Below are positions 4,182 to 35,704 of a DNA stretch of 64,000 nucleotides, piece by piece. Source of the stretch: a virus; IMG/VR virus record IMGVR_UViG_3300049988_000263; one strand, given 5' to 3'. Both the position numbers and the translations under genes were made by a program. The first letter of the stretch is position 1, and the number at the start of each line of letters is the position of its first letter. The notes below the pieces were generated by a model. It did not search any database and had not been told where the DNA came from. It worked only from the letters and a program-made list of their open reading frames with translations.

Positions 4182-5108
4182 GTGGTAATCAACATCGAAA
4201 GACTGCTGAGCGCCAGCCGGACCACCCACGCGAAACTCGCCCAGGAAACCCACTGCTACTGGTGCGAGGAACTGTTCAACGACGAACACGTCTATGGGTC
4301 GAACCCGACCATGGATCACGTCATTCCGCTGGCCGATCTCGGACCCCGTACCGCCGCGTTCAATCTCGTCCGAGCCTGCGGGTTCTGTAATGGACTGCGC
4401 GGGCACGCCCACGTGTACGAATGGGAAGTCGTCGTACATGACTTCGTCAAACCATACCGGCGCGATCTCCCCGGTATGGCCCAGGCTCTGGCCCAGGCAG
4501 AAGGCTTCCGACGATACGCGGTGATCGTGAAAAGCATCGCCGAACGCCAAGCCATCGAACAAGTCGAAGAAGTCTCGATCCGCCGTTGGTCAGTCGATGA
4601 CGCCGCCTCAGAATTCAACGTCTCGCTCAAACGGCTCCCGAACGATTACGGGATCAACTGGTTCGAGTTCCTAAAAAGCATGATCCATACGGTCAAGGTG
4701 GATCAGATGAGCGCCGCCACCTCTCCGGTCTGGACCAACGCGGGCCTCGACCTGAAGATCAGCCGCCATGCCCGCCATGGAGCGCTGCTGGACGGCGATC
4801 TCGCCATGGTCACCCCAACGGAATGGAGAATCCTGAAGACGTTCAAAGACGCTCCAGAAGCCGTCCGCTTCCGAACAGCGGTCGGTGATGGGAATGTCTA
4901 CATGAACCTGCTCAAACTCGGCCGAGATCGAATGGGTATCCTTCTGCATCGGCCTAACCGGACCAAACAGGAGGCGAAGAACCTCTTCCTCTACGGAACG
5001 AGCGGAGCCGCCGCCCTGCGAATCCACGCGTACGCAACCCAAGAAATCATCCATCCCCTGTTGATGGAGCAAAAAGAGGTTGACACGCGTTTAGGGGTTC
5101 CTGCATAA
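4182..5108 (+). CDS. HNH nuclease-domain protein
   Basis: CYWC...MDHVIPL...NLVRACGFCNGLRG; GTG start after AGGAG. Confidence 0.75.
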   Translation: MVINIERLLSASRTTHAKLAQETHCYWCEELFNDEHVYGSNPTMDHVIPLADLGPRTAAFNLVRACGFCNGLRGHAHVYEWEVVVHDFVKPYRRDLPGMAQALAQAEGFRRYAVIVKSIAERQAIEQVEEVSIRRWSVDDAASEFNVSLKRLPNDYGINWFEFLKSMIHTVKVDQMSAATSPVWTNAGLDLKISRHARHGALLDGDLAMVTPTEWRILKTFKDAPEAVRFRTAVGDGNVYMNLLKLGRDRMGILLHRPNRTKQEAKNLFLYGTSGAAALRIHAYATQEIIHPLLMEQKEVDTRLGVPA

Positions 5109-5111
5109 ATA
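5080..5111 (+). promoter_or_regulatory. Promoter of the Ser/Gln leader
   Basis: TTGACA (5080) and CATAAATA (5104). Confidence 0.7.
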
Positions 5112-5116
5112 AAATC

Positions 5117-5212
5117 ATGATCGTCCTGAGTTCACAGCAGCAGTCCCAACAGTCGTCGTCCTCATCGAGGGCGCGGGGTTCTGTGCTGGGCGTGGAAGAG
5201 ATTGCTTTGTAA
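5117..5212 (+). CDS. Attenuator leader peptide, Ser/Gln-rich (MIVLSSQQQSQQSSSSSRARGSVLGVEEIAL)
   Basis: 9 Ser and 5 Gln codons in 31 aa; followed by a terminator; upstream of Ser/Gln tRNAs. Confidence 0.8.
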   Translation: MIVLSSQQQSQQSSSSSRARGSVLGVEEIAL

Positions 5213-5239
5213 GCGAATCCCAACCACGTTTAGGTTCAG

Positions 5240-5269
5240 ACCCCGGTGCGAAAGCAGCCGGGGTTTTTT
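5240..5269 (+). terminator. Attenuator terminator 1
   Basis: ACCCCGG-TGC-GAAA-GCA-G-CCGGGGT-TTTTT; the 5' arm is also complementary to 5174-5183. Confidence 0.85.
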
Positions 5270-5294
5270 ATTGCCAAATTCAGGAAGAATCACA

Positions 5295-5612
5295 ATGAGT
5301 TACCGAAATATCAACATCGACGGCCGACAGTGGCGCTTCAAGATCGGACGATCGTCCGTCCATCTTCGCGACCCGGACGGCAAGGGACAGGTGATCCCCA
5401 AGATCGAGATCACCCGTTACCGCCAGAGTCCGCGCAAGGAGATCAACATCGATCTGCAAGTGCACCGGGATGATCCGAAGAGCTTCCTCGACGCGATCAG
5501 TCGATGCTCCGATGCTCTCGCGATCATCGAAGAAGAGACAACATTAGGTCCACGTGACATTCGTCACTGGATCGAGAATCGACGCACGACTACTTCGATC
5601 TACAGAAACTAA
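5295..5612 (+). CDS. Hypothetical protein immediately after attenuator 1
   Basis: MSYRNINIDGRQWRFKIG...; AGGAAGA upstream. Confidence 0.6.
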   Translation: MSYRNINIDGRQWRFKIGRSSVHLRDPDGKGQVIPKIEITRYRQSPRKEINIDLQVHRDDPKSFLDAISRCSDALAIIEEETTLGPRDIRHWIENRRTTTSIYRN

Positions 5613-5644
5613 TCTGAAAAAGATCGAAAATAGTACTTGCAACA

Positions 5645-5890
5645 CCCCGTTCGATGATCTAGGTAAGGGTCATCGAACGGGGCACGGACCCTACCAACGC
5701 CTTAGGGTCCATAAACATCAGCCAGAGGGGAAACCCCCTGGAGGTCCGCGAGAGCACCGTCCGGGGTCAAGCCGATAACAGGCGAGTACCGGAAGGCCAT
5801 GGAGCGGGTGGCCAAACATAAGGAAGGAGTGAGGGTCATGGGTACAGCAGGGCGGGGCGCCCATCCCTAAGTCGGGAAAGCCTCAACAGA
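5645..5890 (+). ncRNA. Putative structured ncRNA before the tRNA-Ser cluster
   Basis: No credible CDS; 16-bp hairpin 5645-5682, GGACCCT/AGGGTCC, CCAG-GGGG-AAA-CCCC-CTGG and GGCCA/TGGCC hairpins. Confidence 0.45.
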
Positions 5891-5901
5891 GAGTGTAGCG
5901 C

Positions 5902-5990
5902 GGACGGGTGACCGAGCCCGGCTTAAGGTAGCGGTCTTGAAAACCGCCGAGGGTGAAAGCCCTCCGTGGGTTCGAATCCCACCCCGTCCG
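5902..5990 (+). tRNA. tRNA-Ser(UGA)
   Basis: Cloverleaf, loop CTTGAAA, long variable arm, G73; no encoded CCA. Confidence 0.95.
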
Positions 5991-6038
5991 CCCTACACTT
6001 TCACGATCCAGCGGAGATTTGCTGAGGTCGTAACAAGA

Positions 6039-6159
6039 ATATCAGAATCGCGTGACTGAGAGGCTTAAGGTTGACGCAGATAGATTGTGACCCGAAGGTG
6101 TCTGCAACACCGCGTGAAGGGAGCAACCGCAGGCTCGAATCCTGTCGCCTTTCTGATAT
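6039..6159 (+). ncRNA. tRNA-like RNA with expanded anticodon arm
   Basis: Ser/Leu-type D-loop ACTGAGAGGCTTAAGGT, T-arm GCAGG-CTCGAAT-CCTGT, acceptor pairs 5/7, closing stem ATATCAG/CTGATAT. Confidence 0.55.
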
Positions 6160-6165
6160 ACCTAC

Positions 6166-6251
6166 GGAGTCTGGGCAGGATGGTAATGCAGCGGTTTGCT
6201 AAACCGTACAGCCGAAAGGCTGAATGGGTTCGATTCCCATAGACTCCGCCA
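6166..6251 (+). tRNA. tRNA-Ser(GCU)
   Basis: Cloverleaf, loop TTGCTAA, variable arm, GCCA end. Confidence 0.95.
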
Positions 6252-6303
6252 AAAAATAAGTATCACGCCTTACAAAATGCGTGGTAGATTAGTATTTGCG
6301 CAG

Positions 6304-6392
6304 GGCGAGTTGGCGGAGTCTGGCTGATCGCGAACGATTCGAAATCGTTTAGACCTGAAAGGGTCTCGGGGGTTCGAATCCCTCACTCGCCG
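6304..6392 (+). tRNA. tRNA-Ser(CGA)
   Basis: Cloverleaf, loop TTCGAAA, variable arm. Confidence 0.95.
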
Positions 6393-6416
6393 CGCTAAAT
6401 TCTATATGTTTTTGAG

Positions 6417-6507
6417 GGACAGGTGGCTGAGTTGGCTTAAGGCGCGCGCCTGGAAAGTGCGTGTACGTGAAAGCGTACCCCGAGTTCGAATCTCGGTCTG
6501 TCCGCCA
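6417..6507 (+). tRNA. tRNA-Ser(GGA)
   Basis: Cloverleaf, loop CTGGAAA, GCCA end. Confidence 0.95.
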
Positions 6508-6570
6508 AAAACATATAGATAGTAAATGAGCTAATTTCTATTATTCCTGCATATTGTAGGAATTTTAGAA

Positions 6571-7038
6571 GTGAATAGAAAACCCAATTGTAGTTGTTCT
6601 GTTTGTAGTACTGAAATATACAGAAGACCGATTCAAATTGAAGCAGGTCCAGTTTTCTGTAGCTCAAAATGCCATGGGTCAACGACGAGAAGACCTCCGG
6701 GTAAGTGCGCAAACTGCGAAGCGGAGATTTCAGGAAAGAGAACATATTGTTCTAAGTCTTGTGCTACGCATAGTAAAATTGGACTGAAGTACAACAAGGG
6801 TAATCCCGCGCTGTATTACAGTTTGAAGCTTAGGGTTGATCTTGCGGAAGCTCGCGGTGGAAGCTGTGAAATCTGTAGGAATGATAACTTCGCAATTCTA
6901 CAAGTCCATCACCTCATTAGAAGGTGTGATGGAGGCGGGGATGAGCATAGTAATCTTCAGCTTCTTTGTGCAAACTGTCATGCAGAGCAGCATAGGGGTA
7001 AATTTACATTCGATATGTGGAAAGAAAAGAAAGAGTAA
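6571..7038 (+). CDS. HNH homing endonuclease within the tRNA cluster
   Basis: Several CxxC motifs; LQVHHLIRR...NLQLLCANCHAEQH; AT-richer than flanks. Confidence 0.85.
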   Translation: MNRKPNCSCSVCSTEIYRRPIQIEAGPVFCSSKCHGSTTRRPPGKCANCEAEISGKRTYCSKSCATHSKIGLKYNKGNPALYYSLKLRVDLAEARGGSCEICRNDNFAILQVHHLIRRCDGGGDEHSNLQLLCANCHAEQHRGKFTFDMWKEKKE

Positions 7039-7053
7039 CGAGAAGTGTTTTGC

Positions 7054-7127
7054 TGAGGGATCATCTAGCGGTAGGATAGCGGTCTCTGACACCGTTCACC
7101 TTGGTTCGAATCCAAGTCCCTCAGCCA
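7054..7127 (+). tRNA. tRNA-Gln(CUG)
   Basis: Cloverleaf, U1, loop CTCTGAC, GCCA end. Confidence 0.93.
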
Positions 7128-7155
7128 AACACTTTACAAGACAGCAGTAATTCGC

Positions 7156-7226
7156 TTGGGATTAGTTTAACGGTAGAACTAAGCACTCTGAATGCTTCAG
7201 TCGTGGTTCGAATCCATGATCCCAAG
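7156..7226 (+). tRNA. tRNA-Gln(CUG), second copy
   Basis: Cloverleaf, loop CTCTGAA. Confidence 0.9.
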
Positions 7227-7243
7227 CAAATTACTGTTTTAAT

Positions 7244-7285
7244 GTAGCCAGGGCAGCGATGCTCTGGCTACAATCGTTTCATGAC
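7244..7285 (+). repeat. 42-bp direct repeat copy 1 (11-bp hairpin + ATG)
   Basis: GTAGCCAGGGCAGCGATGCTCTGGCTACAATCGTTTCATGAC, identical to 7541-7582. Confidence 0.95.
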
Positions 7286-7544
7286 GATCCCCGACAATCT
7301 CCCGCTGATCCAGTCTGAAAAGACGGCGCCGACCGACGATCCACTGTTCAGCGATTTCGCTTATGGGTTCACCCTCGACGATCGGCACGCACAGCTTTAC
7401 GAATGTGTCGCGTGGTGTGCCGAGCGATTCGGAACGTGCAGCAAGAACGGAAGTTGGTTCCTGAACGCCGTTGGCCGGTATGGGACCGCGATCTGGTTCC
7501 GAGATTTCAACCACGCGATGGAGTTCAAGCTCACATGGAAGTAG
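7281..7544 (+). CDS. FKxRW-family small protein
   Basis: Ends FRDFNHAMEFKLTWK. Confidence 0.8.
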   Translation: MTIPDNLPLIQSEKTAPTDDPLFSDFAYGFTLDDRHAQLYECVAWCAERFGTCSKNGSWFLNAVGRYGTAIWFRDFNHAMEFKLTWK

Positions 7545-7582
7545 CCAGGGCAGCGATGCTCTGGCTACAATCGTTTCATGAC
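7541..7582 (+). repeat. 42-bp direct repeat copy 2
   Basis: Identical to 7244-7285. Confidence 0.95.
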
Positions 7583-7823
7583 CATCCGCTTCATCGTCCG
7601 CGACCCCGATACGCTATGGTACAACCACGATATCCGTCGATTCCGGTTCGGATTCATAGATGTTTCTGCGGTCTTATACCGGGAGGATCAGCGAGAGATC
7701 GAGATGTGGTGCCAGGAGCATATCGGTGAGTACGGTGCCAAGGGGCTGTGGTACACGCATGATGCGACCTTCTGGTTCGTCCACGAGGATCACGCGATGG
7801 AATTCAAGCTGCGATGGTTCTGA
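7578..7823 (+). CDS. FKxRW-family small protein
   Basis: Ends FVHEDHAMEFKLRWF. Confidence 0.8.
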   Translation: MTIRFIVRDPDTLWYNHDIRRFRFGFIDVSAVLYREDQREIEMWCQEHIGEYGAKGLWYTHDATFWFVHEDHAMEFKLRWF

Positions 7824-7825
7824 AC

Positions 7826-8092
7826 ATGAACCAATATCGTATCCAACTTCCTCTGATCCGCGCCGAGATCGTTAACCCAACGGGTGAGCGATTCTACAAC
7901 GGGTTCTCGTATGCGTTCGACCTATACGATCAGCACGCATCGTTTAAGGACGTGATCGCGTGGTGCGAGGAGCGATTCGGCGCGGACGATCCCGAGGGGC
8001 ATTGGATGACCGAGACCAACACGATGGCGACCGTCGTCGTATGGTTTCGCGAGTCCGCCGAGGCGATGGAGTTCAAGCTCAGATGGGCGTGA
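7826..8092 (+). CDS. FKxRW-family small protein
   Basis: Ends FRESAEAMEFKLRWA. Confidence 0.8.
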   Translation: MNQYRIQLPLIRAEIVNPTGERFYNGFSYAFDLYDQHASFKDVIAWCEERFGADDPEGHWMTETNTMATVVVWFRESAEAMEFKLRWA

Positions 8093-8576: not shown

Positions 8577-8581
8577 CTGAG

Positions 8582-8609
8582 TTGACAGATTGTTTTTTCG
8601 GTGTATATT
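8582..8609 (+). promoter_or_regulatory. Early-type promoter
   Basis: TTGAC-N13-GGTGTATATT. Confidence 0.75.
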
Positions 8610-9200: not shown

Positions 9201-9210
9201 AGTTCTCCTA

Positions 9211-9492: not shown

Positions 9493-9498
9493 GCTCAG

Positions 9499-9780: not shown

Positions 9781-10013
9781 AGTTCGTTGAAGTCTCGCGG
9801 GACACTTTTATCCATCCGTTCCCAACCGGCTACCACTACATGTTCTTCGCCAATGCGTTCGCGCACAACTATGATATTTGGGAGGAAGCCCGTCGCTGGG
9901 GTGTGGCTCGGTTTGGGCCGGATGATCCGGATGCGGAATGGTTCTCCCATAATGGGCGGATGTTGTTTCGCCGGTTGGACCATGCGATGGAGTTCAAGCT
10001 TCGCTGGTGTTGA
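9771..10013 (+). CDS. FKxRW-family small protein
   Basis: Ends FRRLDHAMEFKLRWC. Confidence 0.8.
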   Translation: MALKFVEVSRDTFIHPFPTGYHYMFFANAFAHNYDIWEEARRWGVARFGPDDPDAEWFSHNGRMLFRRLDHAMEFKLRWC

Positions 10014-10039
10014 TGTATTTCTGAATACGAGTATATTCG

Positions 10040-10264
10040 TTGGACCATCAAGGGGATTTTCCGATGTACGCGGCGACCGAACATAAGATCACATTCGGTC
10101 CGTTGAGGATCAACGGGGAGTACCCGGTATATCTGGACGACGTCCTTCGTGGCTGGGTTGCCCGGCACTTCTCAAGCTGGGCGTACGGCTACCTACCGGG
10201 GGAGCGGATGGTCGGCCACGAGCATTCCCAGATGGCCGCCGCAGAGGCGCTGATTGAGCGCTAA
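10040..10264 (+). CDS. Hypothetical protein
   Basis: Fills the gap between family genes. Confidence 0.45.
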   Translation: MDHQGDFPMYAATEHKITFGPLRINGEYPVYLDDVLRGWVARHFSSWAYGYLPGERMVGHEHSQMAAAEALIER

Positions 10265-10265
10265 T

Positions 10266-10505
10266 ATGCCGCTTCGATTCACACCAATTCCCACAATGTT
10301 CCTCGGTGGGGGCGTGGACATATTCCCCTATATGTTCTCCATCAACGTCTCGTATGAGAACTATCTGGAGTACGAGGCGTGCCTGAGGTGGTGCATCGAG
10401 CGGTTCGGTGAGCCGGACCTTGCCCAGCACTGGTACATCTGCGACTCGATGTTCTTGTTCAATCGTCTCGACTACGCGACGGAGTTCAAGCTTCGATGGG
10501 TCTGA
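10266..10505 (+). CDS. FKxRW-family small protein
   Basis: Ends FNRLDYATEFKLRWV. Confidence 0.8.
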   Translation: MPLRFTPIPTMFLGGGVDIFPYMFSINVSYENYLEYEACLRWCIERFGEPDLAQHWYICDSMFLFNRLDYATEFKLRWV

Positions 10506-10741
10506 ACGTCTACCAGCGTGACCCGGATGACTATCATCACGGGCTCTATATGATCCCTAAGGAATTCCCACACGTATTCCTGATTGAGGTCAGTTGGCCG
10601 GACACGCATGCGTCGATTCGCGATTGGTGCGTCGCGCATGTGGGTGAAGCTGGGCTTGCGCAGGATTGGTGCTACAACTCGGCATCCATCTGGTTCCGGC
10701 ATGCTCACCATGCGATAGAGTTCAAGCTCCGTTGGACGTAG
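10496..10741 (+). CDS. FKxRW-family small protein
   Basis: Ends FRHAHHAIEFKLRWT. Confidence 0.8.
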   Translation: MGLNVYQRDPDDYHHGLYMIPKEFPHVFLIEVSWPDTHASIRDWCVAHVGEAGLAQDWCYNSASIWFRHAHHAIEFKLRWT

Positions 10742-11363
10742 GGTGGCGCGGCGGCGGGTACGCGGATGGTGTATCCTTGGGGAAGAAGTCTCCAAGCTGC
10801 TGGATCACGACAGCCCTCGGGATCACCTGGGTGCTCCGACCTCCGACCATGCGTCCCATAAAGACGCCATGGCCGTGACCGCCAGAGTGGTAGATTTCCC
10901 ATTCTTGGTCTTTGTACTGGACAATTTTACCTACATAGTGCTGTTTCCAATGGCGGCCATCATAGGCAATCCTATGGGGCTTCCAGCTATTCCAGAACGC
11001 GAATGCTTCATCGCTCACGCTCGTTGCTGGGACCAGATACCCGCCTTTGGACTCGCAGTACTTCTCTACGGCATCGTACAATGCGCGGGCGACGCCTTTA
11101 CGGCGATACTTCTCATCAACAACCGATTTGTAAATGTGAAAAACGCGCTCACCTTTCTCGTCTACATCGGTGGGCGATCCCATAAAAATGGCACCGCCGA
11201 TCTTCTTACCACCGAGACGGGGTGATCCATTGTAAGCCCAGATAGATTGGTAGCCATCCTCGACTATCACAAGATTCTTCTCAGGCGTGAAGTCTTTATA
11301 CGTTCGAGATTTTGGCTTCTCAACGTCTTCGTTTAGGTGGTAGGCAAAGTCATGGTATCGCAT
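10722..11363 (-). CDS. GNAT-family acetyltransferase, late gene
   Basis: Motif A VVDEKYRRKGVARALY; start MRYHDFAYHLNE placed 5 nt after GTAAATA. Confidence 0.7.
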   Translation of the reverse strand: MRYHDFAYHLNEDVEKPKSRTYKDFTPEKNLVIVEDGYQSIWAYNGSPRLGGKKIGGAIFMGSPTDVDEKGERVFHIYKSVVDEKYRRKGVARALYDAVEKYCESKGGYLVPATSVSDEAFAFWNSWKPHRIAYDGRHWKQHYVGKIVQYKDQEWEIYHSGGHGHGVFMGRMVGGRSTQVIPRAVVIQQLGDFFPKDTPSAYPPPRHPTSNGA

Positions 11364-11405
11364 GACCCTATTTACAAAATATCGGGATTTGGCTAATAAT
11401 TTCGT

Positions 11406-11654
11406 ATGACGAAAGCCCTGCTTAAGATGGCATCGATCCAGATTGACTCCAACCATGGGGCGCCTGTGGGGTTCCCGTTCTGCTTCTTCTGCCCCCTGTA
11501 TATCGACAACATCCGGGAGTTCGATGAGATACTGGACTGGTGCCGATCCCGTCATGGAGAGGACGGACCTGACGAGGACTGGTACGAGCGGTATGGAGCG
11601 ATCTTCTTCCGCCGAGAGGACGACGCGATGGAGTTCAAAATCCGATGGGGGTAA
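11406..11654 (+). CDS. FKxRW-family small protein
   Basis: Ends FRREDDAMEFKIRWG. Confidence 0.8.
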   Translation: MTKALLKMASIQIDSNHGAPVGFPFCFFCPLYIDNIREFDEILDWCRSRHGEDGPDEDWYERYGAIFFRREDDAMEFKIRWG

Positions 11655-12168: not shown

Positions 12169-12584
12169 CGCCACTGTGATGGCGACGTAAATCCGTCAGA
12201 CATCGTCTTCACGGCAGGTCCGACCCGAAGGCTATCCATGTACGCGACCAGACCACGCCGATTGTCGAACACCTGATAGGTCATGGCATTGTCCTTGAGG
12301 GAGAATCCGACATAACGAACATCCTTCAGTCGTGGCGCGAGGACTTCGTCCAAGGCCAGGAGGCGAAAGCAAATCGCCCCAAGGCAGTTAATCATTGTCT
12401 CGGACGCCTCCATATCCATGCTACCCGAATACATGCTAATCCAATAGTCGTGGTTATTCTCGGGGGCATCCTTGAACGCGAACTGGCTGATATCATCGAG
12501 AACATCTCGGCGTATCTTGGCCTGATACACGACGCGCCCAAACGGCTTATGCTGGCTGAATCCAAAGTGCACAAAATTTGACAT
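12165..12584 (-). CDS. Hypothetical protein
   Basis: GAGGAGA SD; 139 aa. Confidence 0.6.
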   Translation of the reverse strand: MSNFVHFGFSQHKPFGRVVYQAKIRRDVLDDISQFAFKDAPENNHDYWISMYSGSMDMEASETMINCLGAICFRLLALDEVLAPRLKDVRYVGFSLKDNAMTYQVFDNRRGLVAYMDSLRVGPAVKTMSDGFTSPSQWR

Positions 12585-12701
12585 GGGGTTTCTCCTCTTT
12601 CAGGAAAATTACCCCGTAGGGATCAGGTGCGTCCATATTTTTGTGACTTGCAATCCTCACAAATAGATGTATATTGGTGCAATCGGTTCAGGGGGATTCA
12701 C

Positions 12702-13262
12702 ATGGCCAACCATTGCAAGACGGTTTCGATTGTCTCTCTGATCGAGAAGGTCAATGCGTTCTGTCTGAATACGGCGGACGACATGAAGGCGGAGCGTGTG
12801 GCGATGGCGAGTTTCCTCGCCGACATCCTGCACCAGAACAACGTCTACGCAGGCTTCGGCTACCTCTACGCCCATCACATGGAGAAGTCCGAGCGCGGCA
12901 CCTCCGTGGGGATCATCTTCGACGAATCTCCCGAGCACAAGCACGTGTATCCGGACGAGTCCCGCGTCTACTACTACGTTGCGCGGAAGCTCGAAGACCC
13001 GGATCGGATTAAGAAGGGCAAGACCATGCCCAAGGGGATGGAGACGATCCGTCTGACTAATGCCCAGGCGAACGTGTTCTTCAACGAAGGACTGCGCCGC
13101 AAGATGCGGGAGTGGCTGGAGGCTCGCCGCTGCTCGATCGTCTACACGGAATTCGAAGATGGGCGTCCTCTCCCTGGTCACGGTGCGGCTGACTTCTCAG
13201 GCTTCACCATCGGTGCGGCCAACCCGAATACGTTGCTCGAATTCAAGCTCGCGTGGTTCTAA
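12702..13262 (+). CDS. Hypothetical N-terminal domain fused to an FKxRW-family domain
   Basis: Follows early promoter variant 12648-12675; ends ANPNTLLEFKLAWF. Confidence 0.7.
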   Translation: MANHCKTVSIVSLIEKVNAFCLNTADDMKAERVAMASFLADILHQNNVYAGFGYLYAHHMEKSERGTSVGIIFDESPEHKHVYPDESRVYYYVARKLEDPDRIKKGKTMPKGMETIRLTNAQANVFFNEGLRRKMREWLEARRCSIVYTEFEDGRPLPGHGAADFSGFTIGAANPNTLLEFKLAWF

Positions 13263-14921: not shown

Positions 14922-14995
14922 TCGGGGATCGTTTAATGGTAGGACGGGGGATTTTGGCTCCCTTAATGTGGGTTCGACTCCTACTCCCCGAGCCA
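14922..14995 (+). tRNA. tRNA-Gln(UUG)
   Basis: Cloverleaf, U1-A72, loop TTTTGGC, GCCA end. Confidence 0.9.
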
Positions 14996-23833: not shown

Positions 23834-23864
23834 TTGACACCTCGGTTAAGGTCTGAGATAAATA
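23834..23864 (+). promoter_or_regulatory. Promoter of the His leader
   Basis: TTGACA-N17-GATAAATA. Confidence 0.75.
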
Positions 23865-23869
23865 AAGTC

Positions 23870-23920
23870 ATGAACACGCATTCGCATCATCATGTCTCGA
23901 AGGGGTCACACCCGTCGTAA
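23870..23920 (+). CDS. Attenuator leader peptide, His-rich (MNTHSHHHVSKGSHPS)
   Basis: 5 His in 16 aa, three in tandem; terminator and tRNA-His follow directly. Confidence 0.85.
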   Translation: MNTHSHHHVSKGSHPS

Positions 23921-23951
23921 ACGCCGCAAGGCGTGATGCGAATCTGTGTGC

Positions 23952-23982
23952 AACCCCGGTAAGCTATGCTTCCGGGGTTTTT
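23952..23982 (+). terminator. Attenuator terminator 2
   Basis: AACCCCGG-T-AAGC-TAT-GCTT-CCGGGGTT-TTT; 23946-23957 can pair instead with 23902-23911. Confidence 0.85.
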
Positions 23983-24003: not shown

Positions 24004-24079
24004 GGTGGCCGTAGTTCAGTGGTAGAACGTCGCCCTGTGACGGCGAATGTCGCCGGTTCGAATCCGGTCGGCCACCCCA
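24004..24079 (+). tRNA. tRNA-His(GUG) with G-1:C73
   Basis: Cloverleaf, loop CTGTGAC, encoded G-1, C73 and CCA. Confidence 0.95.
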
Positions 24080-24098: not shown

Positions 24099-24650
24099 AT
24101 GAGAATTTCGACCGAGCAGGCGCATGCGTTGTTCGACTGCTTCGAAGACTCTGGGCTTCTCATCGATCCGGACGGGTCCTGGCGCAAGAACTTCCACATG
24201 GAGGTCTCTGTGCTCGGGCATAAGCGCTGGAGCCAAGGCCCGTGGACGCTGATGAACGAGTGGGGCAAGCTGAAGCCTCCTCGGCTGTCGATGGCACCGC
24301 TCGGCGCGTTGTCCACGCCGGAACGCGAGATCGCCGAGGCCGACCGGCTGGAGCGGGTCAACGCGGAGATCGCCCGGATCATGTCGAACGAGCCCGTGCC
24401 GGACCCGGACTTCGCCAAGAGCTTCCCCCGGATCACCCAGGCCGAGATGGAAGCGATGGACGAGGCCCAATGGGAAGCGTTCTTCGACAAAGTCGATGAG
24501 ACCGGCCCCTACATCATCACGAGCCCTCACCGCAAAGACGTGGTGATACTCTCGATCAAGCAATTCGCACGTCTGACAGGAGAAAAACTATGCTGCGAGG
24601 AACTCGAATCATCGACGGAGCCCAGGCCCGACTCTTCACCGACACCATAG
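24099..24650 (+). CDS. Hypothetical protein, possible C-terminal Phd/YefM-like domain
   Basis: FFDKVDETGPYIITSPHRKDVVILSIKQFARL. Confidence 0.55.
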   Translation: MRISTEQAHALFDCFEDSGLLIDPDGSWRKNFHMEVSVLGHKRWSQGPWTLMNEWGKLKPPRLSMAPLGALSTPEREIAEADRLERVNAEIARIMSNEPVPDPDFAKSFPRITQAEMEAMDEAQWEAFFDKVDETGPYIITSPHRKDVVILSIKQFARLTGEKLCCEELESSTEPRPDSSPTP

Positions 24651-25199
24651 AGACGATCCGGAGGTGTCTTCATCGAGGCTGAGTTCGAGGAAATCATCGT
24701 CCCCTCGATTTGGGAGGCGGAGACTTTTCTGGACAAGGTCGGCGACGAAAATCGCCGGATGATGTGGACGTTTCAGGACAAGGGCGAGCGTAACGTCTGC
24801 CTGATCCCGGAGGTTACCGGACTGTTGCAGGAGACGTGGCGGGAGGATTGGTCGAAGCGCTCCAAAACCCGCAACGTCTTCTACGTCCAGCGCTGCTACC
24901 GGTACGAGCGCCCCCAGGCGGGTCGATACCGGGAGTTCACCCAGCTTGGTATTGAGATGCTGGGGAGCCAGGACAGCACCAGGGCAAAGGCGCTCCTACG
25001 GGATTGCCTTGACCGGTTCGACGTGGAATATTCGTTCAACGAATCTGCCAAGCGCGGCCTCTCCTACTACGTGGAGGAGGGGTTCGAGGCGAGCGTGGCC
25101 AAGCTCGGCGCGCAGAAGCAGATCGCGGGTGGAGGGGCCTACGCCGAAGGTGTAGGCTGGGCCATTGGAATCGATCGATTGGTCCTGGCGAGGCAGTAA
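24590..25199 (+). CDS. hisS: Minimal histidyl-tRNA synthetase-like catalytic core with a +1 frame break near 24662
   Basis: AGGAG SD; MLRGTRII...ETIRR then, in the +1 frame, VFIEAEFEEIIVPSIWE; motif 2 YRYERPQAGRYREFTQLGIE; motif 3 GWAIGIDRL; no anticodon-binding domain. Confidence 0.8.
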
Positions 25200-25753
25200 T
25201 GGCTAAGATTGACAGCCACACCGATTTAGATGAGCTTCGGCGGCGTCAGAAGGGTGATCGCGATGCTGAGAGAAATCAGGAGGCCGAGGCGATCTACAGG
25301 AAAGACCTGGGAAACCTCGCCCTTCCGATCCTGAGTATTTTTTCAATTCTCTTCTTCATCATTGATTTTAAGGAGATTCCGTCTTCATCGGGTATCGGAC
25401 TGCTGTTGCTCGCCTCGTGTATCACGTACATTATAGGGTTTGTGCTGGGCACGGCGATCACCATAGGGGCCGTCTGCTTTATCGTCTTGAAGAATCGTTG
25501 GCGCCGACGCCAGGATGATCGAATCCTTAATCTCCATGAAGATGAGCGTGAACATCTGGTCCACTATGCGTACGGTGGAGATCGTCCTCTGGTCTGCCGG
25601 TACATCGTCTTGCGGGACGAGGTGCTGGATTGGGCGAAACAATCCGGAGTCAAGATGGCCGTGCTCACAACGTATCGGAAACAAGGGGACATCCCACTGG
25701 TTTGGTTCAGAAATCCCGAACACGCTGTGGCATTCAAGATGCGTTGGTATTAG
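25199..25753 (+). CDS. TM segments fused to an FKxRW-family domain
   Basis: Two hydrophobic stretches; ends FRNPEHAVAFKMRWY. Confidence 0.75.
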   Translation: MAKIDSHTDLDELRRRQKGDRDAERNQEAEAIYRKDLGNLALPILSIFSILFFIIDFKEIPSSSGIGLLLLASCITYIIGFVLGTAITIGAVCFIVLKNRWRRRQDDRILNLHEDEREHLVHYAYGGDRPLVCRYIVLRDEVLDWAKQSGVKMAVLTTYRKQGDIPLVWFRNPEHAVAFKMRWY

Positions 25754-25762: not shown

Positions 25763-25837
25763 GGGGGTGTAGCTAAGTGGTAAAGCCGGTCGCTCATAAC
25801 GGCCTCATCGCGTGTTCGATTCACGCCACCCCTACCA
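25763..25837 (+). tRNA. tRNA(CAU): Met or Ile2
   Basis: Cloverleaf, loop CTCATAA, ACCA end. Confidence 0.9.
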
Positions 25838-27966: not shown

Positions 27967-28890
27967 TCACGCATCGATGAAGCGACACTCAAACTCTTGC
28001 GCGAAAGCGCGCTCACCCAGGGCATTCCGTTGCGTCGTGGCCCAGGCTTCATCCCGATCCGGATGGCAATCCCACGGAGCGAAGAACGGCGCGATCCCAT
28101 TCTGCCCACGACCATTGTCATCCACCTGAGTCTGCGACCCCTGCCAGACCTTGTGGAACAGGTCCCCGGTGAAGTTTGGCGTCGAGGTGAGGATGAAACG
28201 TGACGTGGGATTGCCCATCATCACCTGCATGGCATCCCACAGGTCCGGGCCAAGGCTGTGTGAGATATAGGCGAGTTCGTCGATGATCGTCAGCGAGATG
28301 GTCAGACCTCTAAAGGAGCCCGAGCCAGCCGCACGGGCCACGATCCGAGTCCCATTGTCGAAGCAAATCGCACCCTTGTTGTACTCGGTCGTGCCCATCT
28401 GAATATGCGGGGGTAGCTGCTCATAGATGAATCGGATTCGCTCCATGATCTCTAAGGCCCCGGCATATCGAGACGAAATGACCATCACGGTCTTATTGTC
28501 ATGAAATAGCGCGAACCACAGCGCATAGATCGCGATACAGGTGGTTTTCCCCATCTGCCGGGCCATATTCACCACGGTCCGAGGATTTCCCTGATAGAAA
28601 GCAAGAAGATGTTTCTGGAAGGGATACGGTTGGAACTTGATCGAACCCTTCACCGGGTGGTTGACGTGGCAATGCTTGGAGAATTCGAGAACACTTTCCG
28701 ACGCCTTGACGAGGTCCCGCATCTCTTCGAACAGGTAGGACTTCGCGGGTTCCTTCTTTGGTGGCGTGACCGGGGAAATGTAGTCGGCGATCGCGTTGGC
28801 TTTTAGGAACAGATCGTTAAGATTCGTCATTCCGGGATGCAGGCGAATGGCCGCATCGAGTGCGTGAACGCGCACTTGCTTCTTATCCAT
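27967..28890 (-). CDS. T4 gp17-like terminase ATPase domain (no nuclease domain)
   Basis: HPVKG..FQPYPFQ, Walker A MARQMGKTT, Walker B IIDELA, motif III TSTPN; ends at QEFECRF. Confidence 0.85.
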   Translation of the reverse strand: MDKKQVRVHALDAAIRLHPGMTNLNDLFLKANAIADYISPVTPPKKEPAKSYLFEEMRDLVKASESVLEFSKHCHVNHPVKGSIKFQPYPFQKHLLAFYQGNPRTVVNMARQMGKTTCIAIYALWFALFHDNKTVMVISSRYAGALEIMERIRFIYEQLPPHIQMGTTEYNKGAICFDNGTRIVARAAGSGSFRGLTISLTIIDELAYISHSLGPDLWDAMQVMMGNPTSRFILTSTPNFTGDLFHKVWQGSQTQVDDNGRGQNGIAPFFAPWDCHPDRDEAWATTQRNALGERAFAQEFECRFIDA

Positions 28891-31127: not shown

Positions 31128-31130
31128 CCG

Positions 31131-31633: not shown

Positions 31634-31692
31634 TGGGAACGCATAATTTTATTATATATCGCGATGACGATTAACCGAAGGATGGCGTACAT

Positions 31693-31920: not shown

Positions 31921-32129
31921 AGTTCGAGTACGAGCAAGAGACGCGCTACGGTAAGCACTGCTTCACCTGCTTTGGAACCGATGCGCACTCGCACGACGAA
32001 GTGATCGCGTTCGTCGATGAGGCGGCGTGCTGGGTCGGTGAACAGGGTGGCGGGATTCGCCACCACAGATATGCGATTCTCATCGACTCGGACGACCTCG
32101 CGTTCGAGTTTAAGATGCGGTGGTGCTGA
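31917..32129 (+). CDS. FKxRW-family small protein (MKFEY subtype)
   Basis: Ends IDSDDLAFEFKMRWC. Confidence 0.8.
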   Translation: MKFEYEQETRYGKHCFTCFGTDAHSHDEVIAFVDEAACWVGEQGGGIRHHRYAILIDSDDLAFEFKMRWC

Positions 32130-32380
32130 TGATCACATACGATCGACACCTTAAGAACCGGTCCGCCATGCCTCATCGATTCGAGATCAAAGAATCGTCC
32201 AAGTTGATCCTCGACGATATCGTTGCATGGTGCCAGGAACAGTTCGGGGAACCGTTCCCCGGTCCCTTTTCGGGTCGCCCCGCCAGTCCAGATGAATTGT
32301 GGTGCGGCATGTGGGGAAACGAAGTAATCTTCATCCGACACGACCGGGATGCATTTAATTTCCGCCTGCGGTGGTGTTGA
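32129..32380 (+). CDS. FKxRW-family small protein
   Basis: Ends IRHDRDAFNFRLRWC. Confidence 0.8.
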   Translation: MITYDRHLKNRSAMPHRFEIKESSKLILDDIVAWCQEQFGEPFPGPFSGRPASPDELWCGMWGNEVIFIRHDRDAFNFRLRWC

Positions 32381-32616
32381 TGCCACGCTTCACCTACGAT
32401 TTCGAGAACACAAACTACGCAAGATTCCCGCACGCGTTCTCACTCGTCGGCGAGATTGAGAATCTTCGCATCAAAGATGCCGTCCACTTCGTGACCGAAG
32501 CCGAGAAATGGTGCGCCCAAGCGTTCGGCGAGAAATCCTACTGGCGCTCCAGCATGTTCGTGCTCCGCCTGCACACGGACGACCAAGCCTTCGCATTCCG
32601 CCTGCGTTGGTGCTGA
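32380..32616 (+). CDS. FKxRW-family small protein
   Basis: Ends LHTDDQAFAFRLRWC. Confidence 0.8.
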   Translation: MPRFTYDFENTNYARFPHAFSLVGEIENLRIKDAVHFVTEAEKWCAQAFGEKSYWRSSMFVLRLHTDDQAFAFRLRWC

Positions 32617-32680
32617 AATTTCATCTTGTAATTCGAATTGCACCGGTTATGTAGGCAATACGAATTCACGAGGGCGCCCC

Positions 32681-33130
32681 ATGTACGACTGGTACAAGGT
32701 CCAATCGATCGTCACCGAATCCCTCCCCCGTGATGCACTCCGGCGCCTGCGCGAGATGGAAGCGGAGATCGAACAGGACGTGGAGCGGCAAACCGCATTC
32801 CTCAGCCGGGTGCGCGATCGGATCGACGGACTCACCAAGGTGATCGGTGACGAACCCACCCTCAAGACGAATGACGTTCAGGCCCTGGTGGATCGGATCA
32901 ACCACGAGCCGGATACCCTGCGCAATCAAGTGATCAAGGTGTTGCTCGCAGCAGACTACCCCATGACCCCCAAGGGCGTGAGCGAGTGCATCCCCGGCGC
33001 TCAATACCACGAAGTCTGGCGCGTGTTCTCCAAGCCCAAGAAGGGCATGAAGGCCCTGGTCCAAGAACCTTTCATCAATACGATCGGCTTCGGAAGGGAT
33101 CGACGCTACGAGATTCCGAAGAGCACGTGA
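32681..33130 (+). CDS. Hypothetical protein (coiled coil plus possible wHTH)
   Basis: GAGGG SD; 149 aa. Confidence 0.6.
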   Translation: MYDWYKVQSIVTESLPRDALRRLREMEAEIEQDVERQTAFLSRVRDRIDGLTKVIGDEPTLKTNDVQALVDRINHEPDTLRNQVIKVLLAADYPMTPKGVSECIPGAQYHEVWRVFSKPKKGMKALVQEPFINTIGFGRDRRYEIPKST

Positions 33131-33157
33131 AGGAACAGAAATCTCGTTCGACGGTTA

Positions 33158-33189
33158 TTGACACGCGTTTTGCACTCCCGGTATAAATA
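33158..33189 (+). promoter_or_regulatory. Promoter of the Met/Cys/Pro/Tyr/Phe leader
   Basis: TTGACA-N18-TATAAATA; shares TTGACACGCGTTT with the promoter at 5080. Confidence 0.75.
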
Positions 33190-33194
33190 AAATC

Positions 33195-33263
33195 ATGAAC
33201 ACGATGTGCCGCCCAATGCCGTATTTTCCCACCAAGGGGGCTCAGCCCACCGTGGAGCGGTAA
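33195..33263 (+). CDS. Attenuator leader peptide MNTMCRPMPYFPTKGAQPTVER
   Basis: Same promoter-leader-terminator layout as 5117 and 23870. Confidence 0.75.
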   Translation: MNTMCRPMPYFPTKGAQPTVER

Positions 33264-33292
33264 CACGCGCATATCCATAGGTGAGGTTTCGA

Positions 33293-33322
33293 GCCCCGGT
33301 CGCGAAAGCAGCCGGGGTTTTT
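33293..33322 (+). terminator. Attenuator terminator 3
   Basis: GCCCCGGTCGCGAAAGCAGCCGGGGTTTTT, nearly identical to terminator 1; GAGCCCC (33291-33297) pairs with GGGGCTC (33237-33243). Confidence 0.85.
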
Positions 33323-33435
33323 CTTTGCCTATAGCGTTCCCAAGTCAGACTCACCGAGTCAGATAACGGGGAAGCTGTGTCAGTAATAAAATTTGAGAGT
33401 ACTGAAAATACTTTCAAAAAAATTCAAATTAGTCG

Positions 33436-33464
33436 TTGACACCAAGATCGAGATGGAGGATAAC
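33436..33464 (+). promoter_or_regulatory. Possible sigma70-type promoter for the ncRNA/tRNA cluster
   Basis: TTGACA-N17-GATAAC. Confidence 0.5.
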
Positions 33465-33480
33465 AGGACAACGAAACGAC

Positions 33481-33710
33481 GGAACAAGTAACCGATCACA
33501 TCAAGGCTGGTGTAACGGCAGGATACCCAAAGCGCACCTTCACTCTCGCATCTGAGAGGTCGGATCGCCAGGGCCGAAGTCGAAATACGGTCTGACCGTG
33601 ATAGGCGCCTATCTGATCAGGACGTGCATGCCCGGCATGGAACCGGGAGGTGGGGCCGACTTATAAATCGGATTCCCGATTGTCATCTGATGTGATCGGT
33701 TACTTGTTTC
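33481..33710 (+). ncRNA. Structured ncRNA module A
   Basis: 21-bp perfect closing inverted repeat 33483-33503/33688-33708; GGATACC, GGCCGA, CTGAC motifs. Confidence 0.7.
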
Positions 33711-33713
33711 AGA

Positions 33714-33880
33714 AGAATCGTTGAATGATCTCATAGCTGGGGGCGTAAAAGGTAGGTCACCTTAAGGGCGATTGATGGCCTCAAAGGCCGATACCAAAAC
33801 TGACGCAAAGGAGTTTTAAACTCCTAGGAAAGGTATGAATCCCTTCCCAGATTGACACTATGAGATCATTCAACGATTCT
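33714..33880 (+). ncRNA. Structured ncRNA module B
   Basis: 23-bp perfect closing inverted repeat 33714-33736/33858-33880; GGTCACC, GGCCGA, CTGAC. Confidence 0.7.
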
Positions 33881-33882
33881 AA

Positions 33883-34055
33883 AAGGACGAAGAACAGACC
33901 GTAGTAAAGAGGTCCGGGCAGGACACCAAAGCCACGTAGGCTTAGGCCGATGCCCGCGCTGACAAACAGCGCTTTAGTGGGACGCCATGCATGAAACATG
34001 GAGGAGTCGGCGCAATACCGGCCAAGTCACCTACTACGGTCTGTTCTTCGTCTTT
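33883..34055 (+). ncRNA. Structured ncRNA module C
   Basis: 21-bp perfect closing inverted repeat 33886-33906/34032-34052; GGACACC, GGCCGA, CTGAC. Confidence 0.7.
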
Positions 34056-34288
34056 AAGAGGTAGGTAGTTAACCGTACTTGCACTAAGATAATCAGTTGG
34101 TCACCTCGGATGTGCGCACATCCAGGCCGAAACTGACACCATTCGCTGCGTAAGCAAAGGCTCCAAGGGTGAGACTGATCATCCACCTTTGAAGCTGGCG
34201 GTGGGAGGCAATCTGGCGAGTTTGGAACTCGTGAAATCTGGGTGAGAATCCCAGGTGAGACATGAGTACGGTTAACTATCTACCTCTT
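34056..34288 (+). ncRNA. Structured ncRNA module D
   Basis: 24-bp closing stem (one G-U) 34056-34079/34265-34288; GGTCACC, GGCCGA, CTGAC. Confidence 0.7.
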
Positions 34289-34290
34289 AT

Positions 34291-34374
34291 GGGAGAGTGT
34301 CCCGAGCGGCAATGGAGGCAGACTGTAAATCTGCTGCGTAAGCTTCGTAGGTTCGAGTCCTACCTCTCCCACCA
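34291..34374 (+). tRNA. tRNA-Tyr(GUA)
   Basis: Cloverleaf, loop CTGTAAA, variable arm, ACCA end. Confidence 0.95.
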
Positions 34375-34567
34375 AGAATTACCGAACGGTAATAAAAACC
34401 GTTTATTACCGTTCGGTTATAACGATGCTCGACAGCAGAATGAGGCTGGCGGATGGGAATCCATGGTAGTGCCCACCGTGCCCTTCGGGGATAGGTGGTG
34501 TGATTCCCCAAGCATCGACCAGAGATCGAGACCTGCGCGTTCTGCGGTGCGCCCATGGTCTCGTCGT

Positions 34568-34646
34568 CGGGGTGTAGCTCAGTCAGGTAGAGCGCTCGGT
34601 TTGGGACCGAGAGGATTCGTCAGTTCGATTCTGACCGCCCCGACCA
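34568..34646 (+). tRNA. tRNA-Pro(UGG)
   Basis: C1-G72, loop TTTGGGA, ACCA end. Confidence 0.93.
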
Positions 34647-34714
34647 AAGAATACCGGTAGGAGGAGCACCCGTTCCTCTCTAAGTCGCCCTGCGGATGGA
34701 GGGTAGAGCCAAAT

Positions 34715-34790
34715 GCCTCTGTAGCTCAGTTGGTAGAGCTTTCGATTGAAGATCGAAGAGTCGGCGGTTCGAGTCCGTCTGGAGGCACCA
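34715..34790 (+). tRNA. tRNA-Phe(GAA)
   Basis: Cloverleaf, loop TTGAAGA, ACCA end. Confidence 0.95.
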
Positions 34791-34899
34791 ATTCGTCCTC
34801 CCTGAGTAATTGGGAAGGATAACAGGGTAGAAGTGGGGTTAGATCACTGCAACGTTCGGAACGTTGCAAACTCGGGGCAGCGCCGGGTACCCTGACCAC

Positions 34900-35400
34900 T
34901 TACTGTCGCTTCCGCCACGCGTCTATGTAGGCCATGATCTTGGCCTCGACGAGGTGGCGGAAGCGGGAGTGCCAATATTGGTGATGATTTGGACATAGCG
35001 GGATGAGATTCCCAGGCTCGTTGTTCGAATTATCGCCATCGAGATGATGCACTTCGACGATGTTCTCTTCGTCGCAGACAACGCATCGTTTCGAATGGAA
35101 GTGAAAGCAGGTGGAGCGATACCGGGATTCTTTCCAGTTCGCAGAATCTGGTCCAGAGCGGAAATGGGTGTTTGCGCATCCGTATCCGCAAGTTGCTGAT
35201 GTCTTGTAGTTCTTTATCGGAGAATCGCAGACAATACAGGGTTTTAGATTCGACGGATTCAGGTGGCACGACGCTTCGTGTTTCTTGATGTTACCAAGAG
35301 TTCTTTCGGCAGAACAGTAGCGACAGGCTTCCTTCCGGACAGCCGCTCGGCGCGCTTTCTCAAGATTCTGGTAATGTTGTTCGGATCGATTATAAGACAT
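34900..35400 (-). CDS. HNH homing endonuclease within the tRNA cluster (antisense)
   Basis: CxxC motifs; VEVHHLDGDNSNNEPGNLIPLCPNHHQYWH. Confidence 0.9.
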   Translation of the reverse strand: MSYNRSEQHYQNLEKARRAAVRKEACRYCSAERTLGNIKKHEASCHLNPSNLKPCIVCDSPIKNYKTSATCGYGCANTHFRSGPDSANWKESRYRSTCFHFHSKRCVVCDEENIVEVHHLDGDNSNNEPGNLIPLCPNHHQYWHSRFRHLVEAKIMAYIDAWRKRQ

Positions 35401-35465
35401 GTCAGAGTAAGGCTTAATGAATAAGCATACTCTGACAGATCGGTTGGACTCAGGTCCATAAGTTT

Positions 35466-35540
35466 GGCAGTGTAGCTCAGGGGTAGAGCAGACGACTCAT
35501 AACCGTCAGGTCGGTGGTTCGAAGCCACCCACTGCCACCA
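35466..35540 (+). tRNA. tRNA(CAU): Met or Ile2
   Basis: Cloverleaf, loop CTCATAA, ACCA end. Confidence 0.92.
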
Positions 35541-35546
35541 AGGTTT

Positions 35547-35621
35547 GTTCGTGTGGTGTGAAAGGTTAGCCAGGGCTCTGCAAAAGCTCTTATGACAGTT
35601 CGAGTCTGTCCACGAACTCCA
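35547..35621 (+). tRNA. tRNA-Cys(GCA)
   Basis: Loop CTGCAAA, U73, CCA. Confidence 0.88.
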
Positions 35622-35627
35622 GGGTAT

Positions 35628-35704
35628 CAGCGCGTAGCTCAGTCAGGTAGAGTATCACGTCGGGAACGTGAGGGTCGTTGGGTCGTAGCCAACCGTGCTG
35701 ACCA
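35628..35704 (+). tRNA. Atypical tRNA-Pro (GGG in the standard register)
   Basis: C1-G72, A73, CCA; anticodon loop TCGGGAA (C33, A37); T-loop GTCGTAG. Confidence 0.65.

Follow-up and report, generated by a model that had tools for sequence, protein, structure and literature searches.

Leader-peptide attenuators of the trpL, hisL, pheL, thrL, leuL, and ilvL class act on cellular biosynthesis and aminoacyl-tRNA synthetase genes. The ilvGMEDA leader carries the Leu, Val, and Ile codons of a shared biosynthetic pathway, and the pheM leader attenuates pheST, an aminoacyl-tRNA synthetase operon. Phage tRNAs are usually viewed as codon usage supplements or as replacements for degraded host tRNAs, and we know of essentially no account of how phages regulate their own tRNA genes. 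Here, we describe three short units in a 64,000-nucleotide (nt) stretch of DNA from a giant, uncultured phage (IMG/VR record IMGVR_UViG_3300049988_000263; this whole stretch is referred to below as the window). With a probability of roughly 0.8, these units attenuate transcription by the ribosome-mediated (leader-peptide) mechanism, each acting on a phage operon mostly of tRNA genes; within the same reading, unit 2 probably also controls a gene for a miniature protein resembling histidyl-tRNA synthetase (HisRS). The mechanism is a known one, and the novelty lies in the regulated product, which is phage tRNA genes (together with the HisRS-like gene) and not the cellular genes controlled by the class named above.

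The hisL leader of Enterobacteria (Rfam family His_leader, RF00514) shares with unit 2 a His-codon leader open reading frame (ORF), a terminator, an antiterminator, and a stem that takes up the control codons when there is no translation. Unit 2 differs in that it would control tRNA-His and a 146-amino-acid (aa) HisRS-like gene rather than histidine biosynthesis, in having 5 His codons against a run of 7, and in lacking a Shine-Dalgarno sequence, being probably leaderless. When compared with RF00514, it scores 13 bits (E = 7) against a gathering score of 49, so that neither its sequence nor its structure places it in the family. A scan of the whole window at Rfam gathering thresholds returned tRNAs only, with no leader family and no T-box, and a scan by E-value likewise gave no leader, T-box, or other family.

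Several amino acids per leader, as in ilvGMEDA, are found in unit 1 (Ser and Gln) and unit 3 (Met, Cys, Pro, Tyr, and Phe), so that one leader would sense several charged tRNAs together. In these units, however, the amino acids are linked only by adjacent tRNA genes, and the set varies by phage together with the cluster. The pheM-pheST system is similar in that leader-peptide attenuation acts on the translation apparatus, and the block behind unit 2 includes the HisRS-like gene. Nevertheless, pheST encodes only the synthetase, whereas the main products of the units would be the tRNAs themselves, which makes for a direct feedback loop. T-box riboswitches also choose between terminator and antiterminator according to tRNA charging on genes of the translation apparatus, but they bind uncharged tRNA directly and without translation, whereas the units described here have an ORF in place of the specifier loop.

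Two comparable cases are present in Caulobacter phage phiCbK. In the first, the annotated 45-codon gp083, which is rich in Leu, Ser, Lys, and Pro, and an annotated terminator precede tRNA genes for Pro (two), Lys (two), Leu (three), and Ser (two). In the second, tRNA genes for Phe, Val, Ile, Ile, Val, Gln, and Gln follow an ORF that is not annotated (Q-F-V-R-Q-I-Q-V-V-R-N-I) and a terminator. The genome paper of this phage annotates terminators before tRNA clusters and mentions neither attenuation nor leaders (PMC3556154). The window is of a different lineage and contains three paralogous units, a fixed promoter-to-ATG spacing, and the mini-HisRS gene in one of the blocks. Full-text literature searches found no published description of leader-peptide attenuation on phage tRNA genes. 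These searches and the phiCbK paper (PMC3556154) agree with a preliminary description of the window, which knew of no account of this arrangement for phage tRNA arrays. The units would be the first case found of classic attenuation on tRNA genes, where the product relieves the inducing stall.

Anatomy and codon content of the three units

The units and the genes that they would control are as follows.

Unit 1 (Ser/Gln)
5080-5269, plus strand: whole unit
5080-5085 and 5104-5111, plus strand: promoter, -35 element TTGACA and -10 region CATAAATA (motif counts)
5117-5212, plus strand: leader ORF, 31 codons and TAA, without a Shine-Dalgarno sequence
5174-5183, plus strand: region 2, CGGGGTTCTG, partner of 5237-5245 (antiterminator) with the control codons occupied and of 5135-5147 in free RNA
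5238-5249 and 5254-5266, plus strand: stem of the intrinsic terminator, T-run to 5269 (folding and terminator scan)
5901-6507, plus strand: tRNA-Ser UGA, GCU, CGA, and GGA (ARAGORN)
7054-7227, plus strand: two tRNA-Gln CUG (ARAGORN)

Unit 2 (His)
23834-23982, plus strand: whole unit
23834-23839 and 23857-23864, plus strand: promoter, -35 element TTGACA and -10 element GATAAATA, both hexamers kept in relative L018 with a different spacer
23870-23920, plus strand: leader ORF, 16 codons and TAA
23874-23888 with 23935-23949, plus strand: protector stem of the control codons, 14 bp in free RNA
23902-23911 with 23946-23957, plus strand: antiterminator, GGGGTCACAC with GTGTGCAACCCC, overlapping the 5' arm of the terminator
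23952-23964 and 23968-23979, plus strand: stem of the intrinsic terminator, T-run to 23982 (folding and terminator scan)
24005-24079, plus strand: tRNA-His GUG, 22 nt past the T-run of unit 2
24759-25199, plus strand: HisRS-like gene, 146 aa, class II core only (Pfam tRNA-synt_His/tRNA-synt_2b)
25763-25837, plus strand: tRNA(CAU), at the end of the unit 2 gene block and without a leader of its own

Unit 3 (Met/Cys/Pro/Tyr/Phe)
33158-33322, plus strand: whole unit
33158-33163 and 33182-33189, plus strand: promoter, -35 element TTGACA and -10 element TATAAATA
33195-33263, plus strand: leader ORF, 22 codons and TAA
33237-33259 with 33268-33297, plus strand: antiterminator, a long imperfect hairpin that includes GGGGCTC:GAGCCCC
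33291-33303 and 33308-33320, plus strand: stem of the intrinsic terminator, T-run to 33322 (folding and terminator scan)
34291-35704, plus strand: tRNA cluster with Tyr GUA, Pro UGG, Phe GAA, CAU, Cys GCA, and Pro GGG (ARAGORN)

A common layout of promoter, 5-nt gap, ATG, short ORF, and terminator had been claimed for these loci, and every one of these features is present at the positions listed, with motif counts beyond chance. The order is the same in all three units: TTGACA, a spacer of 18 to 19 nt, ATAAATA, exactly 5 nt, ATG, a short ORF, and a hairpin. The leader ORF starts 31, 30, and 31 nt past the -35 hexamer in units 1, 2, and 3, respectively. The 15-mer ATAAATAAARTCATG has three perfect copies in the window (5105, 23858, and 33183), and with up to 3 mismatches, it has 6 matches versus 1.0 expected, a number attained by no shuffle. 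The three units are also the only TTGACA...ATAA[AT] sites within the 64 kb.

The terminators are equally alike. Each has the hairpin core CCCCGG/CCGGGG, and the stems span 12 to 13 positions with 10 to 12 pairs in two helices, followed by 5 to 6 T. The sequence CCCCGG-N-CCGGGGTTTTT has three copies in the window (5241, 23954, and 33294), where 0 are expected, and the units account for 3 of the 11 terminator-like sites that the terminator scan found on the plus strand. Alignment of the three units shows that the -35 element, the block from the -10 element to the ATG, and the terminator are conserved, whereas the coding part between them is divergent. This indicates that the units are diverged paralogues. 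A GGGG segment within the leader ORF is read as A-R-G in unit 1 and as K-G in units 2 and 3, and this difference in reading frame points to a constraint on the RNA and not on the peptide.

The leader peptides are strongly biased in composition. In unit 1, all 13 codons of the control run (codons 5 to 17, 5129-5167) encode Ser or Gln. In unit 2, His is found at codons 4, 6, 7, 8, and 14, which amounts to 5 of the 15 residues after the start codon. The control run of unit 3 (codons 4 to 12, 33204-33230) reads M-C-R-P-M-P-Y-F-P, with eight of nine codons cognate to the six downstream anticodons. ARAGORN located 16 tRNA genes in the window, all on the plus strand, and Rfam confirmed 15 of them. 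The tRNAs behind the units are those that the preliminary description had matched to the biased residues (Ser/Gln, His, and Met/Cys/Pro/Tyr/Phe), and for residues 2 to 21, the binomial probability of the match is 2.7e-9 for unit 1, 2.3e-5 for unit 2, and 2.0e-3 for unit 3, with the amino acid frequencies in long ORFs of this phage group as background.

At the level of individual isoacceptors, the leader codons do cover every distinct anticodon of the cluster (5 of 5, 1 of 1, and 6 of 6 in units 1, 2, and 3), but this is uninformative, given that simulations with random synonymous codons and a fixed peptide attain full coverage about 85% of the time, so that the window leaders are not significant. 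The signal therefore sits at the amino acid level. Among the informative codons, the proportion that the cluster anticodons can read was not above expectation (z = 0.6), and anticodon coverage across leaders was marginally above the synonymous-codon simulations (92 versus 87.3 +/- 2.3, P = 0.025). As these codon-level tests did not discriminate, no claim of isoacceptor-level design is made.

Alternative RNA structures and leader-tRNA co-variation

The structures available to each leader transcript were explored by constrained folding, with a 30-nt ribosome footprint placed at each codon. In the free RNA, the control-codon region pairs downstream and the terminator forms. This pairing of the control region with region 2 is strong in unit 2 (14 bp; z = -4.15 for the leader without the terminator) and present but weak in units 1 (z = -1.6) and 3 (z = -0.5). 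With the footprint on the control codons and the transcript ending before the 3' arm, the antiterminator forms, for footprints at codons 2 to 15 in unit 1, 2 to 7 in unit 2, and 2 to 10 in unit 3. The segment that pairs with the 5' arm of the terminator is the GGGG segment, located 7 to 9 nt past the last control codon. A ribosome further on or at the stop codon covers this segment in units 2 and 3, which releases the 5' arm so that the terminator can form. In unit 3, the antiterminator is the minimum free energy structure even of the full-length transcript with a ribosome on codons 8 to 10.

The stability of these structures was compared with shuffled sequences in 20 units, 3 from the window and 17 from relatives. 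The stretch of RNA that begins where the stalled ribosome leaves off and closes with the 5' arm folds more stably than its dinucleotide shuffles, with a mean z of -3.1 over the 20 units and values of -3.5, -2.9, and -4.4 for units 1, 2, and 3 of the window. The energy gained by adding the 5' arm likewise exceeds that obtained with shuffled upstream sequence (mean z of -2.8, p = 1.4e-6 over the same units). For unit 1, this gain is -13.0 kcal/mol versus -4.8 +/- 2.6 kcal/mol in shuffles (z = -3.1), and for unit 3, it is -14.7 versus -7.3 +/- 2.9 kcal/mol (z = -2.5). Moreover, the RNAalifold consensus of five divergent His-type leaders is the GGGG:CCCC antiterminator.

The alternative pairing of the GGGG segment with the terminator arm, which had been proposed from inspection of the letters, is thus seen in the folds of all units and surpasses shuffles in units 1 and 3, although not significantly in unit 2 alone. 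The likeness to his/trp/thr-type attenuation also held at the sequence level, the promoter-proximal ORF, the clustered control codons, the terminator, and an exclusive antiterminator just 3' of the control codons being all present.

Related loci were fetched by means of the HisRS-like protein, which gave 48 loci, drawn from huge-phage contigs in IMG/VR (up to 608 kb long) and additional assemblies. The tRNA-bearing loci examined number 45 (44 fetched loci and the window) and belong to huge phages of 200 to 600 kb. A generic scan, blind to composition, recorded ATG-initiated ORFs of 8 to 45 codons followed by a hairpin with a T-run and by tRNA genes within 1.2 kb. At least one leader was significant after correction in 21 of the 45 loci. 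The agreement between leader and cluster had a mean -log10 p of 2.69, versus 0.78 +/- 0.17 for re-paired leaders and clusters, and was attained in 0 of 5000 permutations. The odds ratio relating the presence of a tRNA for an amino acid in the cluster to the presence of two or more such residues in the leader was 20.8. Leader composition tracks the local tRNA set in relatives that range from 41 to 58% in G+C content. The co-variation that the preliminary description had proposed to look for in related phages is therefore clearly positive. The pairs observed include the following.

Leader Tyr/Ser: before tRNA Tyr, Tyr, Ser, Ser
Leader HAHHCHHSH: before two tRNA-His and two tRNA-Cys
Leader Ser/Tyr/His/Cys: before mixed Ser, Tyr, His, Cys clusters
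Leader Glu/Tyr: before tRNA Glu, Glu, Tyr, Tyr
Leader Leu/Asn/Pro: before tRNA Ile, Leu, Pro, Asn
Leader Gln/Ser: before three tRNA-Gln
Leader Lys/His/Ser/Phe/Trp: before tRNA Lys, Arg, Trp, Ser, His, Phe
Leader rich in Lys: before two tRNA-Lys

The most telling single case is the relative L065, with 81% identity in the HisRS-like protein. Here, tRNAs for His, Tyr, Phe, Pro, Met, Thr, and Cys are merged in one cluster, and the leader is merged as well: the single peptide, F-T-M-C-H-M-P-F-H-Y-P-S-H, is of the unit 3 type with added His codons.

Natural variants of unit 2 differ by one added in-frame His codon, both in L018 and in the silage metagenome run X4. In X4, which corresponds to positions 23842-23969 of the window, an extra CAT codon lies within the His run. 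The promoter spacer of this variant has lost 1 nt and gained 1 nt at a distance of 9 nt, so that its length is preserved, and compensating indels in the terminator keep the stem.

Homologues of the protein encoded behind unit 2 number more than 2000 on huge-phage contigs, with 40 to 95% identity, and the gene adjoins tRNA-His in most loci inspected. At 146 aa, it is far too short for a normal HisRS. On a 180-kb IMG/VR contig (L048:9670-9789), the HisRS-like gene is immediately preceded by a His-containing leader, K-L-H-H-H, and a terminator, in a locus that yielded no tRNA-His. This suggests that the switch can control a protein gene alone. The His unit would tie this conserved family to the supply of tRNA-His.

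Proposed mechanism and rival explanations

We infer from the sequence where transcription starts, that the leaders are translated, and how read-through responds. Transcription from a host-type promoter would begin at the leader ATG or a few bases from it, and a ribosome would translate the leader while RNA polymerase proceeds. Given an ample supply of charged tRNAs that read the control codons, the ribosome would run through the leader. It would then cover the GGGG segment in units 2 and 3, and in unit 1, the control-codon region would re-pair with this segment. With the GGGG segment sequestered, the CCCCGG hairpin would form and transcription would halt before the tRNA genes. Slow decoding, on the other hand, would stall the ribosome on the control codons and leave the GGGG segment 7 to 9 nt downstream free to pair with the 5' arm of the terminator, allowing the polymerase to continue into the tRNA genes. 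Each unit would be a negative-feedback supply controller of its own tRNA set, since it would yield the same tRNAs whose supply it tests.

Such a mechanism would predict when and why phage tRNAs are made. It would also provide a sequence signature by which such leaders, now unannotated or called hypothetical proteins, could be annotated in hundreds of huge-phage genomes, and compact natural sensors of decoding speed that respond to up to ~10 amino acids at once.

In the window and in its nearest relatives, L018 and L063, the ATG is found 5 to 8 nt past the -10 element with no Shine-Dalgarno sequence. From this spacing, transcription would start on the ATG or immediately beside it, and the window leaders are probably leaderless mRNAs. 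In distant relatives, the 5' region is longer, and GAGGA (second unit of L019), AGGAG (L020), or GGAG (L065) precedes the leader ATG, which supports the translation of these leader ORFs.

Several observations weigh against attenuation. None of the three window leaders is preceded by a Shine-Dalgarno sequence, and translation would need leaderless initiation. In unit 1, 31 nt separate the GGGG segment from the stop codon downstream, which departs from the textbook geometry. Unstalled termination must therefore rest on renewed pairing between the control region (5135-5147) and region 2 (5176-5188), and in the thermodynamic model with a ribosome at the stop codon of this unit, the antiterminator re-forms. 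Unit 2 taken alone is not significant in the arm-gain test against shuffles (z = -1.0). Real and shuffled leaders could not be told apart by the paired fraction of the arm in truncated transcripts: shuffled leaders pair it as well (0.4 to 0.7), since some partner for a G+C-rich arm turns up in any shuffled sequence. The energy-based tests replaced this measure as the control.

The genomic context also contributes points of this kind. The first tRNA is 632 nt downstream of unit 1 and 969 nt downstream of unit 3, and a second TTGACA at 33436 could independently feed the tRNAs of unit 3. Some tRNA genes of the window have no leader of their own: those at 14922, tRNA-Gln(UUG), and 60355, tRNA-Cys, stand alone, and that at 25763 ends the unit 2 block. 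The co-variation statistics ignore shared descent, and the Ser/Tyr/His/Cys group by itself is only suggestive (p = 0.066). In Sinorhizobium phage Phosso, which is the best cultured relative (469 kb; 42% identity in the terminase and 65% in the HisRS-like protein), no codon-matched leaders were found in 62 kb containing most of its 59 tRNA matches. The feature is therefore not universal in the group, and Phosso does not lend itself as an experimental model of it.

An extended form of the attenuation reading would make each cluster an autonomous and modular sensor of demand, with a leader "checklist" that is rewritten as tRNA genes move between clusters and a switch, read from leaderless mRNAs, that fires only upon the destruction of host tRNAs, be it by anticodon nucleases of a defense system or by decay that the phage induces. 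In this full form, the proposal is unlikely. If it were true, the units would be inducible counter-defense devices and programmable sensors of decoding speed.

Phage tRNAs have been reported to compensate for the loss of host tRNAs and to evade tRNA-targeting defenses. The trigger named in the preliminary description, starvation or an anticodon-nuclease defense, is speculative. The same hardware might accordingly serve as a counter-defense switch, fired by anticodon nucleases or by phage-induced tRNA decay, and not as a routine homeostat. The logic fits, since any loss of the cognate charged tRNA would cause a stall, but nothing in the window ties the units to a defense system. The very broad range of amino acids in the relatives (Ser, Gln, His, Tyr, Cys, Pro, Phe, Met, Leu, Asn, Lys, Arg, Trp, Glu, and Ile) seems to fit general control of supply better than a reaction to a single nuclease, and we consider a dedicated counter-defense role quite unlikely.

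It is also conceivable, though very improbable, that the leaders sense decoding speed with an output other than termination, such as a change in Rho access, in the processing of a tRNA precursor by RNase, or in how well the following ORF (5295-5612 or the HisRS-like gene) is translated. Protein genes do lie within the controlled blocks, the His-rich leader of L048 precedes the HisRS-like gene where no tRNA-His was detected, and the geometry of unit 1 fits the textbook model less well. Nevertheless, all units end in a canonical G+C-rich hairpin with a T-run before the first regulated gene, and the competing structure overlaps exactly the 5' arm of this terminator.

Hardly credible is the view that the units are constitutive promoter-terminator cassettes for a small RNA or a functional peptide whose resemblance to the tRNA sets has some other cause: a small RNA gene, too, would consist of a promoter, a brief transcript, and a strong terminator, and a weak, sub-threshold Rfam likeness to small RNAs is driven by the terminator, but this leaves unexplained the composition that tracks the local tRNA set across phages of 41 to 58% G+C, the GGGG segment that is kept in different frames and whose complementarity to the terminator arm exceeds chance, and the indels of the control run that are in-frame His codons, three grounds on which chance ORFs in such cassettes were rejected.

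Neighboring genes and phage context

Other genes lie within the blocks behind the three units.

5295-5612, plus strand: ORF behind unit 1, no Pfam match
6571-7038, plus strand: HNH endonuclease ORF within the unit 1 gene block (domain match)
24099-24650, plus strand: ORF in the unit 2 block
25199-25753, plus strand: ORF in the unit 2 block
34900-35400, minus strand: HNH ORF inside the unit 3 tRNA cluster

The two HNH ORFs, at 6571-7038 (plus strand) and 34900-35400 (minus strand), are inside two of the tRNA clusters and are likely homing-type mobile genes. Between the terminator of unit 3 and tRNA-Tyr (33323-34290, plus strand), there are ~970 nt of highly structured noncoding DNA, in which no Rfam match was found; this segment may be a processed RNA or an independent promoter region. 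The equivalent gap in the relative L019 measures only 189 nt. The stand-alone tRNA-Cys gene belongs to a unit (60316-60522, plus strand) that has its own TTGACA/TATATA promoter (60316), a plain terminator (60495), and no leader, and it provides an internal contrast to the three clusters with leaders.

The window contains a T4-type terminase N-terminal domain, which identifies it as phage DNA. The terminase match at 27967-28890 (minus strand) comprises only the N-terminal ATPase domain, in a 307-aa ORF amid small genes of the plus strand, and is possibly part of a split large terminase. DNA similarity to INPHARED phages was restricted to tRNA genes, with no close relative among deposited phages, and a search for relatives with a 943-aa protein found none. 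The exact promoter and ATG pattern TTGACA-N17-19-ATAAATAAARTCATG had no match in viral contigs; its 9 matches in metagenome contigs and 8 in genome contigs lacked the leader and terminator layout and were rejected as chance. Near-identical DNA is present in leaf and silage metagenomes, and no RNA run was among the runs listed for it.

The relative L020 (NCBI GCA_043956695.1), a 1.14-Mb contig, has the same leader design and encodes EF-G-like and class I aminoacyl-tRNA synthetase-like proteins; this contig represents a phage genome of exceptional size or else a misbinned or chimeric assembly. L065 encodes a GcrA-like protein (12579-13163) and a histidine kinase/response regulator pair (9888-11415), which together with the similarity to Phosso hint at an alphaproteobacterial host.

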